Shown: in pieces, positions 1 to 3,000 of the stretch | Layout of the letters: each line of letters begins with the position of its first letter | How positions within the stretch are numbered: the stretch's first letter is position 1 | IMG/VR virus record: IMGVR_UViG_2537562191_000055 | Source of the DNA: a virus | Taxonomy: Duplodnaviria > Heunggongvirae > Uroviricota > Caudoviricetes | Length of the DNA: 37,584 nt | Strand: one strand, 5' to 3' | Made by a program: the position numbers

Positions 1-3000
1 TCATTTTTTCCAGAGGCGGTCGAACTCCGCCTTCGCAAAATAAGCGGAAGCCTGGCGAAGGATATCGTTACTGCGGCGCAGTTCACGATTTTCACGTTCC
101 AGCTCTTTCAGACGCTGACGTTCAGCGCTGGTGAGCCCACCATCACCGCCCCCGGTATCCCGCTCATGCTGGCGAACCCAGACACGCAGAGTCTCCGGCG
201 TACAGCCAATCTTTGGGGCAATGGAACAAATTGCCGCCCACTGTGAGTCATATTCATCCTGACTTTCCAGAACCATACGAATCGCCCGCTGACGGACTTC
301 GGGGGAAAAACGAGTATTTTTAGTCATCCTGTTTACCTCTTTCTCAGGGAGTTTAGTCTCCAGGATTTCCGGGGCGGTTCAATCCATCTCCAACAAAATC
401 TCCTGATTATTAGCGTAAACTCATCGACGAAATCGTTACTATCCCCTGGGCACATATGTACCATTGAATACTACTGTTCTCCAGATTCTGATAATCCATG
501 GCGAACAATAAGAACACTACAGCCGCTTTGCTGATTAGTTAGCCATAACGGTGAACTTTGCTGGATAGTTTGAGAAATATCATTTCGCCGGAGGCTTATA
601 CACTGATTACTCAAGCTTACAACTGCAGGTGCATCAAAGCGCTCCGGACTATCAGTATCACGCATAGCTGTAAACAGAATATAATCACTACCAGCCATAT
701 CATATTCCGTTTCTTTTAGTCTTAACAAGCCATCCTCTCTTGTAATATTAACTGTAATTAAAGATGTCTCATCATGATGGGCATAGCGCTGTGTATTAAG
801 AATTAAATGCTCTTCCAGAAATTTTACAGGGTTACTACGTATTTCATTCATTATACACCGAAGCTCTGAACGATGCGGCACCAGAAAGTGCCCGGTATTT
901 TGTGAAATAATACTACTTACCTTGATTGTTTTCTCTCCAGCTCATGAAAAATAACTCGCGTATTATATTGTTTTACCAACCACAGGCCCCGAATGCCTGT
1001 GGTGTTTTTATATAAATTATCGGAAGTTAATATTGTTTCATTTGAAACATCTTAACTATCTTTTATAATAAAGCTTCCCCTTGCAGGGTCATATTTACAC
1101 TCTTCTGGTTTAACAATCATTGATGGGGTTATTGGAGCTCGTGTCAGAGGGTGAACTGAACCGTCATTAACCACGCGAGAAAGTGCATCAACATCAAATA
1201 AAGTGCATACTGCTGAACTATCTGAATTTTTGACAAACACTCCTTCTTCGGGTCTCTCTAGTGTAATTGGACACTGAATAGACTCTGGCGGGCACTGGAA
1301 ATTTCCTGAACTAACAGGAAACTTACATTGAGATATTTTGTCCTGAATACTCTCTTGCGATTGTGCTTCACCTGAGTCCGAAAGCATACTTAGCATTCTC
1401 TCACTAAGGGCTCGAGGACCATTATTAAATCCCAAAATCAATAACTCAGAAAGCAATCCGTCATTACCGCCACTGGATGAAAAGCGCCCATTAGTAGCAT
1501 CATACACAATACTGACAGTTTCACCACCTACTGTATATCTCCGCGCCCATTGGCTGCAATTCGGGCACGAAAAACCTCCAGCCCAAGATTAAATGAACGT
1601 GATCCAATATCTGAGGTTAATGGCATAACAAAACTCCCTATTTTAATTTGAACTCCAGACTTAAATAGCTGTAACAAACATCTGCCTTATATGGCAACAC
1701 AAAAACCGGAGCCGGACTCCGTTTTTTGTGTGTCGGGCTGTTCATTCTATCCTTTCAACATTCAGCCTGATTGGCATTTATAGGTTATAACGTCGGTATT
1801 ATCGGCCACTCAATATCCAGTGCAGTTGATGTATCAACACGGTTCAGTAACACCCGATACTTTTCAGTATGCCAAAGGGATGATCACCCGTGAGATAGCC
1901 GCCGCGTTCATGCTCATGCTAAAACATGGGGCACACAGAAAGTGATGGTATTAGATCTATATGGCATTTCATCATCAAATGCTGTTGACGGACTTACAGT
2001 CCGTGACTTACTACACAAATATTTAAATGACCAAATGCCGGAGGTAAAGCAGACCGTACTAAAAGATATGTGCTAGAACTGCTTATGGATAGTGACATCT
2101 CCGCGATCAAACTATCTGAACTGACAGAAAATGACGTAATTGAACATTGCAGGCTGAGAAACAACGCTGGTGCAGGTCCAGCAACAGTCAGTCACGATGT
2201 TAGTTATCTTGGCAGTGTTCTGGATGCAGCCAAACCTATATACGGAATTAATTACACATCAAACCCGGCGAAAAGTGCTCGTCCATATCTACTTAAACTT
2301 GCTTTGATTGGTAAATCAAACCGTCGTAATCGTAGACCAGCAGTTGATGAACTTGACATGCTCATTGAAGCCCTTCAACAACGATCTACTCATAAATGTT
2401 CAAAAATTCCGTTCGTTGATATCCTCAAAAGTTCAGCCTAGGCTATGCTGAACCGGTTTTCCTGAATCATTTTACCGTATGGTTAAATTTTAACGTCATA
2501 ATACTTATTATTATGTTTACAAATAATTGCAGTTTTAACAAAAGCTAACTACATAGTGATTTTATTATCTCAATGTTTTTTCAATATTATCGGTGTCATA
2601 CTCAAACAACTGGAAACTAAAATTGTCATGCTTTTGATATTGAATATTTTCCTTTCGTAACATTTTAACATTTCCATCAATATCAAATAACGTTGCAATC
2701 TGCTCCAAATCTGTCTTATTTTGAGACATGCAGGAGAAGTAATTACAAATATCATCCAGCAAAATCGGAGTCAATGCTTTATGCGTCATCCAGTCCTCAA
2801 ATCTTAACTTTCTGGTGACGCCCTCTCCTAAATCTGACTGATACAAGAATGCAGGACGACAAGAGTTTTCTCCTTTGGGAATATCGACAATGTAAGCATG
2901 ACCAAGCGCACCATCATTAACACGTAATACAAAGCTCTTACATTCAGGCATACAGGACAGGCGCTCCTGAAGCTGCTCGAGCGATAGTGTCTGTTCATTT

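Follow-up and report, generated by a model that had tools for sequence, protein, structure and literature searches.

A hairpin repeated at two effector junctions of a lambdoid prophage is probably the core of a tail-fiber/effector junction module

We analyzed a 37,584-nucleotide stretch of DNA (IMG/VR record IMGVR_UViG_2537562191_000055; "the window" denotes the whole stretch), a lambdoid prophage in which a short hairpin occurs twice. As the initial annotation had proposed, both copies lie at borders of effector loci, each between tail-fiber sequence and an effector gene. We consider it likely that the repeat is the core of a junction module that ends tail-fiber genes and opens the exchangeable effector locus (EEL) in lambda-like prophages of Escherichia coli that carry LEE (locus of enterocyte effacement), i.e., the enterohemorrhagic and enteropathogenic pathotypes (EHEC and EPEC). 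The module would combine a predicted terminator, the inverted repeat known as NRIR (nle regulatory inverted repeat), and portable homology.

The repeat, ACAAAAACCGGAGCCGGACTCCG(G)TTTT, is found at 1699-1726 and 4564-4591. It had been described as identical over 30 bp at both sites; two copies are indeed present, and the coordinates were right to within 1-3 nt, but the two 28-mers match at 27 of 28 positions and so are near-identical, not identical. On the plus strand, copy 1 reads AAAAACCGGAG-CCGGA-CTCCG-TTTTTT (1701-1727) and copy 2 reads AAAAACCGGAG-CCGGA-CTCCGG-TTTT (4566-4591). The G-to-T change at 1722 in copy 1 produces a stem mismatch that interrupts the arm and leaves a perfect run of 5 bp, against 10 bp in copy 2. 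Searching with a 26-mer and up to three mismatches returns these two sites only in the 37.6 kb, and none in 100 dinucleotide shuffles. The likeness reaches beyond the hairpin, to TAACAAACATC at 1672-1682 and 4539-4549, 17-18 nt to the left of each copy, and to ...GTCGGG on the right flank of both. Either strand of either copy folds into a stable hairpin (-18 to -21 kcal/mol; z-scores -3.0 to -3.9), and copy 1 is picked up on both strands by a simple scan for terminators. Rfam has no match at 1690-1740 or 4555-4605, even with E values up to 5. All phage and effector genes discussed here are on the minus strand, and the parts of the two modules are as follows.

4566..4591, minus strand: hairpin copy 2, AAAACCGGAG-TCCGG-CTCCGGTTTTT, a 10-bp perfect inverted repeat with a 5-nt spacer, then the U-rich UUUUUGUUGU
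1701..1727, minus strand: hairpin copy 1, equal to copy 2 save for the substitution at 1722 (stem mismatch)
4592..4605, minus strand: left linker of copy 2, CCCGACAGCTTCAC, between the stop codon of the tail-fiber C-terminal-domain gene (tail-fiber C; stop at 4606-4608) and the hairpin
1729-1738, minus strand: left linker of copy 1, CCCGACACAC
4539..4565, minus strand: right arm of copy 2, TTGTTGTCATGT, a 7-nt variable spacer, and GATGTTTGTTA
1672..1700, minus strand: right arm of copy 1, TTGTGTTGCCATATAAGGCAGATGTTTGTTA

The initial annotation suggested looking for the motif in other effector-carrying prophages, and there it recurs at tail-fiber/effector junctions. From reference phages and prophage contigs of IMG/VR, we gathered 151 oriented occurrences, which represent 87 unique contexts. 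A second sample of 128 loci was anchored on the end of the tail-fiber gene only, and hence is unbiased as to the hairpin; both samples, and the counts drawn from them below, refer to the matches listed. The module measures ~70 nt and consists of CCCGACAGCTTCAC, the hairpin, TTGTTGTCATGT, 6-7 variable bases, and GATGTTTGTTA. Conservation begins in the last codons of tail-fiber C (...ENIGGMK*), runs through the module, and then collapses. The left linker is kept in >90% of the 87 unique contexts, and in the rare contexts that have no tail-fiber end, upstream homology breaks at this linker. On the other side, homology between cargo types stops after ...GTTA. For 74 of the 87 unique contexts, this right boundary is placed 54-59 nt past the start of the hairpin, with at least 14 sequence clusters beyond it, mostly effectors, although several seemingly different cargo leaders are diverged homologs rather than independent insertions.

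The first open reading frame (ORF) downstream encodes NleG in 37 cases (hairpin-to-start distance mostly 66-76 nt), an NleB-like protein in 19 (138 nt), NleH in 15 (67 nt), and an NleC-like protein in 10 (about 391 nt); other cargo includes a LuxR-like regulator, a 291-amino-acid protein, and a leucine-rich-repeat protein. Counting from the effectors instead, the hairpin lies within 600 nt upstream of 12/12 NleB, 9/15 NleH, 42/82 NleG, 6/13 NleC, and 0/5 Cif genes. Behind the tail-fiber gene end, it is present in all 128 tail-fiber-anchored loci. Because the module follows every one of these tail-fiber ends but precedes only about half of the sampled effector genes, it belongs first to the phage backbone and secondarily to the effectors, which acquire it by sitting beside it. 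One cargo type has a poly-G run as the variable spacer of its module, from G7 to G11 depending on the locus (L007, ~6370-6385; L057, L126, L133, L136, L138, and L142), just upstream of an ORF starting ATGCCGTGTAATTCTGG. These length differences could be phase variation or a sequencing artifact.

What might such an element do for the genes behind it? García-Angulo et al. (2012, J Bacteriol 194:5589) reportedly described NRIR as an inverted repeat of 13 bp that lies upstream of nleH1 and nleB2, essential for their transcription and present upstream of some of the other nle genes in attaching/effacing pathogens, and nleH1 and nleB2 are reportedly expressed independently of Ler and GrlA, under repression by GrlR and H-NS. 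A review places an NRIR motif in the EPEC nleB2 regulatory region (PMC7142665). We tested whether the repeat is NRIR using the genome of wild-type EPEC E2348/69 (NC_011601.1); a match labeled E. coli O127:H6 was set aside as EPEC1, a construct from which effectors are deleted. Its 105-nt intergenic region between the tail-fiber gene and nleH1 is identical to that in the window, and the hairpin is the sole inverted repeat of at least 9 nt in 400 nt around the nleH1 upstream region and start codon. At nleB2, the hairpin stands 137 nt ahead of the start codon as ACAAAAACCGGAG-TCCGG-CTCCGGTTTTTGT, a perfect 13-bp repeat. The 5-A consensus of the sampled hairpins is also ACAAAAACCGGAG-TCCGG-CTCCGGTTTTTGT, with 13-bp arms that fit the arm length reported for NRIR. 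What the nleH1 and nleB2 upstream regions share is mainly a ~103-nt block bearing the hairpin, plus a 56-nt tail-fiber remnant. Neither the printed NRIR sequence nor the hairpin sequence itself was found in the literature searched. Like the hairpin, NRIR is an inverted repeat conserved upstream of nleH1 and nleB2; the two show no demonstrable difference, and from these sequence comparisons we infer that it is highly probable that the repeat is the published NRIR.

The hairpin also has the anatomy of an intrinsic terminator, as the initial annotation called it and as the record of phage 434 labels it; this remains a prediction, however, and the probable identity with NRIR had been missed. Its stem is CCGGAG/CTCCGG with an A-U extension (G+C-rich, at least 5 bp), the loop is 3-5 nt, and on the minus strand there is a U-tract behind each copy (UUUUUGUUGU for copy 2, UUUUUGUGUU for copy 1). 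Read in the direction of the late genes, an A-tract precedes each hairpin and UUUUUG(U)UGU follows it, which is how a bidirectional intrinsic terminator is laid out. The placement also fits, shortly 3' of a co-oriented stop codon (copy 2) or gene remnant (copy 1). In the phage 434 record (OL657226), 25 homologous nucleotides are annotated as a terminator, directly after the tail-fiber assembly chaperone and before NleB, NleC, and NleH remnants. The intrinsic terminators of lambdoid morons and late operons (in 434, after J, lom, and tfa; OL657226) share with the hairpin a G+C-rich stem, a short loop, a U-tract, and proximity to a stop codon. The hairpin differs from them in that its sequence conservation goes far past the requirements of a terminator, and in being joined to a conserved 29-nt right arm. 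It also departs from the classical moron arrangement of promoter, gene, and terminator, since its place is upstream, not downstream, of the cargo gene.

Variation among the sampled modules bears on this question. In the 128 tail-fiber-anchored loci, the arms are invariant and changes fall almost solely in the loop (the central 3-5 nt); a natural variant, CTCTGG, in 4 loci keeps a G-U pair in the late-strand RNA and would leave the other strand mismatched. In 15 occurrences (6 unique sequences in 3 lineages), all of them internal copies behind tfa-type remnants, the G+C stem has been replaced or degraded, whereas no stem decay is seen behind the 128 intact tail-fiber genes. The 29-nt right arm stays conserved even in modules that have lost the stem. 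Decay only behind gene remnants suggests a role in termination, given few independent events, and homogenization together with the tail-fiber gene could also explain the pattern. The stem-lost modules (L264, ~4040-4075; L004, ~9040-9075 and ~10470-10500; L012, L020, L027, and L097) have A+T-rich sequence in place of the stem and fold weakly or not at all; A/T tracts are retained, as is the right arm TTGTTG(T/C)CATGT...GATGTTTGTTA, and 4 of the 6 unique sequences lie upstream of nleH.

Putting these observations together, we propose that in the late-gene direction the hairpin would terminate or insulate transcription leaving lom and the tail-fiber genes in the lysogen, while Q-modified late transcription would read through it. 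The repeat and its 29-nt right arm would form the upstream regulatory region of whichever gene comes first, a function that is taken from the literature. Finally, the near-identical tail-fiber 3' end and module in ~13 co-resident prophages could provide portable homology for swapping and stacking effector blocks, as the comparative patterns described below suggest.

Several points weigh against this proposal. Termination is predicted from anatomy, fold, and the 434 annotation, and the invariant arms give no covariation that would separate an RNA structure from a protein-binding palindrome. Lambdoid late transcription is antiterminated by Q, so the hairpin would not stop lytic late transcription. 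A promoter scan from the hairpin to nleH or nleG found no consensus sigma-70 promoter; this fits an activator-dependent promoter, and we treat the notion that TTGTCA-N18-TGtTAnnnn is a weak promoter of the extended -10 type as speculative and do not use it as evidence. What is said here of the NRIR sequence, and of its being essential for activation, comes from the reported content of an abstract and one sentence of a review. The hairpin- and tail-fiber-anchored loci are those among the matches listed and include many clonal relatives. The link to LEE-positive strains, moreover, is not assignable to the hairpin itself, as hairpin and tail-fiber gene are co-distributed.

The first alternative is that the hairpin is only the Rho-independent terminator of the tail-fiber operon, that it has no role in effector expression, and that the second copy is a passive fossil on a gene stump. 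This is plausible, though we find it clearly less likely than the junction module proposed above. Anatomy and the 434 annotation fit, as does the position behind all 128 tail-fiber ends, yet the 29-nt right arm is co-conserved and kept even without the stem. Stem decay is found where an upstream gene is missing, but copy 1 and many other internal copies retain a near-intact stem. The absence of the hairpin upstream of cif genes, and upstream of about half of nleG and nleH genes, would be expected of an element indifferent to effectors; against this, the hairpin matches the location of NRIR upstream of EPEC nleH1 and nleB2, where promoter activity would not be expected to require an upstream terminator. 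The shape of the palindrome, finally, is generic across many phyla. In a degenerate-loop scan of genome contigs (AAAACCGGAG-N5-CTCCGGTTTT), at least 120 terminator-like palindromes are unrelated to the module, and among the matches listed the true module appears in E. albertii only. The bare palindrome occurs in at least 120 unrelated genomes, of Pseudomonas, Duganella, Clostridia, Patescibacteria, and others, far above the roughly one occurrence expected by chance in 596 Gb, and it looks like a convergent, favored terminator shape.

The opposite simplification is that the repeat is a DNA palindrome for a dimeric transcription factor, i.e., NRIR only, and that its resemblance to a terminator is incidental. 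The central 3-5 nt vary between half-sites (AAAACCGGAG/CTCCGGTTTT) that do not, the start codons of nleG and nleH keep a fixed distance of 66-76 nt, and the NRIR literature points the same way. However, the repeat lies 14 nt behind a stop codon in every intact case, is flanked by an A-tract and a T-tract just as in bidirectional terminators, and loses its stem only where there is no upstream gene. The CTCTGG variant also retains pairing on the late strand, where the other strand would be mismatched. We therefore regard this explanation as improbable.

A more ambitious version of the proposed junction module can also be put forward, tentatively and at rather long odds. The module may be a "plug-in" expression platform that stops phage transcription, supplies an activator-dependent site (NRIR plus right arm), and offers portable homology. 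If so, any gene landing after ...GTTA in any of the ~13 co-resident prophages would join one Ler-independent virulence regulon that is shuffled between phages, an integron-like system of capture and expression running on homologous recombination.

Why does the window hold two copies? It is a prophage at bio/ybhB, and its first 7 kb are 100% identical to an E. coli O111:H8 prophage by ybhB/bioA. The genes concerned are these, from the structural genes toward the prophage end.

6922-10449, minus strand: J
6255-6854, minus strand: lom
4877..6196, minus strand: tail-fiber N-terminal-domain gene (tail-fiber N), with collagen-like repeats
4606..4875, minus strand: tail-fiber C (Pfam Phage_fiber_C), last gene of the late/tail block
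3619..4500, minus strand: nleH, type III effector kinase
2565..3395, minus strand: cif, type III effector, second gene of the nleH block, without an upstream hairpin
2070..2441, plus strand: integrase-like pseudogene fragment (phrog_1 integrase, E = 6e-9; PGAP pseudogene 1909-2435)
1785..1865, minus strand: Tfa-type tail-fiber-assembly remnant, 26 C-terminal codons (PGAP "tail fiber assembly protein, missing N-terminus")
1052..1626, minus strand: nleG-family effector, frameshifted (Pfam T3SS_NleG)

In order of transcription, J, lom, tail-fiber N, and tail-fiber C are followed by hairpin copy 2, nleH, cif, and the integrase-like pseudogene on the opposite strand, and then by the tfa remnant, copy 1, the frameshifted nleG, a hypothetical gene, and IS1203. 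Between the tail-fiber C stop and copy 2 there are 14 nt, and 65 nt separate copy 2 from the nleH start codon; copy 1 is 58 nt past the tfa remnant and 74 nt ahead of the nleG start, with the integrase remnant nearby. The initial annotation raised the possibility that a gene once preceded the copy at 1701, and this is borne out by the 26-codon Tfa remnant at 1785-1865 and the adjoining integrase-like pseudogene. The remnant matches PHROG tail-fiber-assembly families (E about 1e-7), and is homologous to tfaQ/tfaR in 5264 genomes, and the integrase fragment is oriented opposite to the late genes, like int in a lambdoid prophage. An Rfam match to IS009 over the remnant (1825-1910, minus strand) is sub-threshold (29.9 bits, where the gathering score is 117; E = 5e-4) and probably reflects homology to the tfa-adjacent region of K-12, not an RNA gene.

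Related phages show where the second copy may have come from. From lom to 1802, the window and phage cdtI run collinear at 94% identity; past this point cdtI enters cdtABC, in place of which the window has the last part of the tfa remnant, followed by the hairpin and nleG. Positions 1672-1864 match an internal unit of tfa fragment plus hairpin in phage 2B8, whose effector locus has three modules. In strain RM14723, the order is tail fiber, hairpin, nleB2, truncated nleC, tfa remnant, module, nleH, and nleF, and in prophage PP4 of EPEC E2348/69 it is tail fiber, hairpin, nleG, a degenerate tail-fiber stump, hairpin, and nleB2. Upstream of 21 of 142 sampled occurrences there is only an 86-130-nt stump of tail-fiber C, in a few discrete length classes of 86, 108, 118, and 130 nt, and about 7 of 142 have some other upstream sequence, which breaks at CCCGAC. 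Tandem and prophage-in-prophage arrangements are described by Nakamura et al. 2021 (PMC8112680), and, consistent with that account, an integrase fragment next to a tfa stump suggests the residue expected from deleting most of a second, downstream prophage. In the window, the second block (nleG and beyond) would have been joined downstream of nleH-cif while keeping the stump of its own prophage, namely the integrase fragment, the last 26 tfa codons, and the hairpin. There would thus be two hairpin copies because the second effector block kept its own tail-fiber gene stump. The internal stumps suggest accretion by homologous or illegitimate recombination between whole prophages rather than excision and insertion of cassettes, and they would record how effector blocks were stacked. 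The idea that effector genes are exchanged as cassettes bounded by the repeat therefore holds in part: the repeat marks the 5' side of each block, but not both sides, and the stumps point to recombination between prophages.

EELs of lambda-like prophages were reportedly described by Tobe et al. in 2006. In EELs, as in the window, effector genes cluster between the tail-fiber genes and the prophage end. Accretion at these loci, including the prophage-in-prophage form, involves recombination between co-resident prophages and leaves remnants of a second prophage inside the locus, again as seen here. Works on EELs describe the loci and the att sites; the hairpin module corresponds to the left-hand junction of the EEL, which is not discussed in the portion of the PMC8112680 text we consulted.

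Boundary or linker sequences are said to belong to the picture of modular phage evolution, as in the Susskind-Botstein model and in Clark et al. 2001. The module resembles them as a short conserved intergenic sequence between exchangeable modules, usable as recombination homology, and differs from them in being conserved at one boundary only and in having plausible transcriptional functions as well.

Could the repeat instead be a site-specific recombination site, attC-like or att-like, that captures effector cassettes? The attC sites of integrons are also imperfect hairpin-forming repeats beside exchangeable genes, and a sharp breakpoint after GTTA common to at least 14 cargo types, together with an integrase fragment near copy 1, might suggest capture. 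However, attC lies 3' of its genes and the element lies 5'; the window has a phage-type integrase fragment only, with no integron integrase, attI, or Pc; and no intact recombinase is linked to the element. Internal copies carry tail-fiber stumps of 86-130 nt or tfa stumps, the signature of whole-prophage recombination, several cargo leaders are diverged homologs, and the integrase fragment can be accounted for as one end of a second prophage that was deleted, consistent with PMC8112680. We consider a recombination site very improbable.

Just as improbable is a small-RNA identity, with the hairpin as the body or terminator of a multicopy prophage RNA such as HnrS (HnrS/EcOnc10), a 66-nt RNA enriched in LEE-positive strains that is present in 3 copies in Sakai and pairs with the ribosome-binding region of hha (PMC13502914). 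HnrS is multicopy and prophage-borne, maps to the late region, has an intrinsic terminator at its end, and shows a pathotype distribution like that of the hairpin (99% of HnrS carriers are EHEC/EPEC), but there are 12-20 hairpins in O157 genomes, no Rfam match at either hairpin site, and no perfect complement of at least 9 nt to the hha ribosome-binding region (-19..+6) on either strand of the window, so that identity with HnrS, compared by its description and the hha complement rather than by sequence, is not supported.

The junction module is widespread within a defined group of strains. A 43-nt query is found in 708/5426 complete E. coli genomes (~13%), with a median of 13 and a maximum of 20 copies per positive genome, and the serotypes named among positive strains include O157:H7, O111, O55:H7, and O127:H6. 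The end of tail-fiber C is found in 698 of the same 5426 genomes (median 11 copies) and nleH in 684; phage lineage and effector repertoire are co-distributed. About 300 phage records carry the element, mostly Shiga toxin (Stx) phages, plus cdtI, 2B8, and 434. The hairpin is therefore multicopy but confined to lambdoid tail-fiber/effector junctions, in ~13% of E. coli genomes, which is not the pattern of a motif common genome-wide and unrelated to effectors. The tail-fiber type itself (Phage_fiber_C with collagen-like repeats) is restricted to ~13% of complete E. coli genomes, a share like that of nleH.

Very probably, the element is already known under two descriptions, as a predicted terminator in phage annotation and as NRIR in the literature on EPEC regulation, at the known boundary of the EEL. 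What appears to be unstated in the literature searched is that the NRIR "regulatory region" is the 3' end of a tail-fiber gene with its terminator-like hairpin, that the module stands behind every sampled tail-fiber gene of this type, whatever the cargo, and that there is one sharp homology end before many cargos, with stumps recording the stacking of blocks. A regulatory motif would be common to unrelated effector genes because it is inherited from the phage backbone. In EHEC/EPEC virulence prophages, the module sits at the exact seam between phage structural genes and the host-targeting effector genes behind them, and it can serve as a simple marker for effector loci and old prophage junctions. 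For the window itself this adds little, beyond a further instance of a described element.

Some other features of the window deserve mention. The hypothetical gene downstream of nleG (ORF of 126-136 amino acids, 471-881, minus strand; WP_001002868.1) has no Pfam or PHROG match, and an identical protein is encoded between cif and espJ in prophage PP2 of EPEC E2348/69; it may be an unrecognized effector-locus gene. Direct repeats with a 99-nt period (5128-5440, minus strand) encode the collagen-like Gly-X-Y region of the tail-fiber protein. Finally, frameshift pseudoknots of the IS3 family of insertion sequences (IS; IS1203/IS629-type; Rfam ALIL) are found at 23366-23482 (minus strand), 33750-33866 (plus strand), and 1-46 (minus strand). 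The two complete ALIL matches score 121.5 bits, and the window contains at least three IS copies, one of them cut by its left edge.

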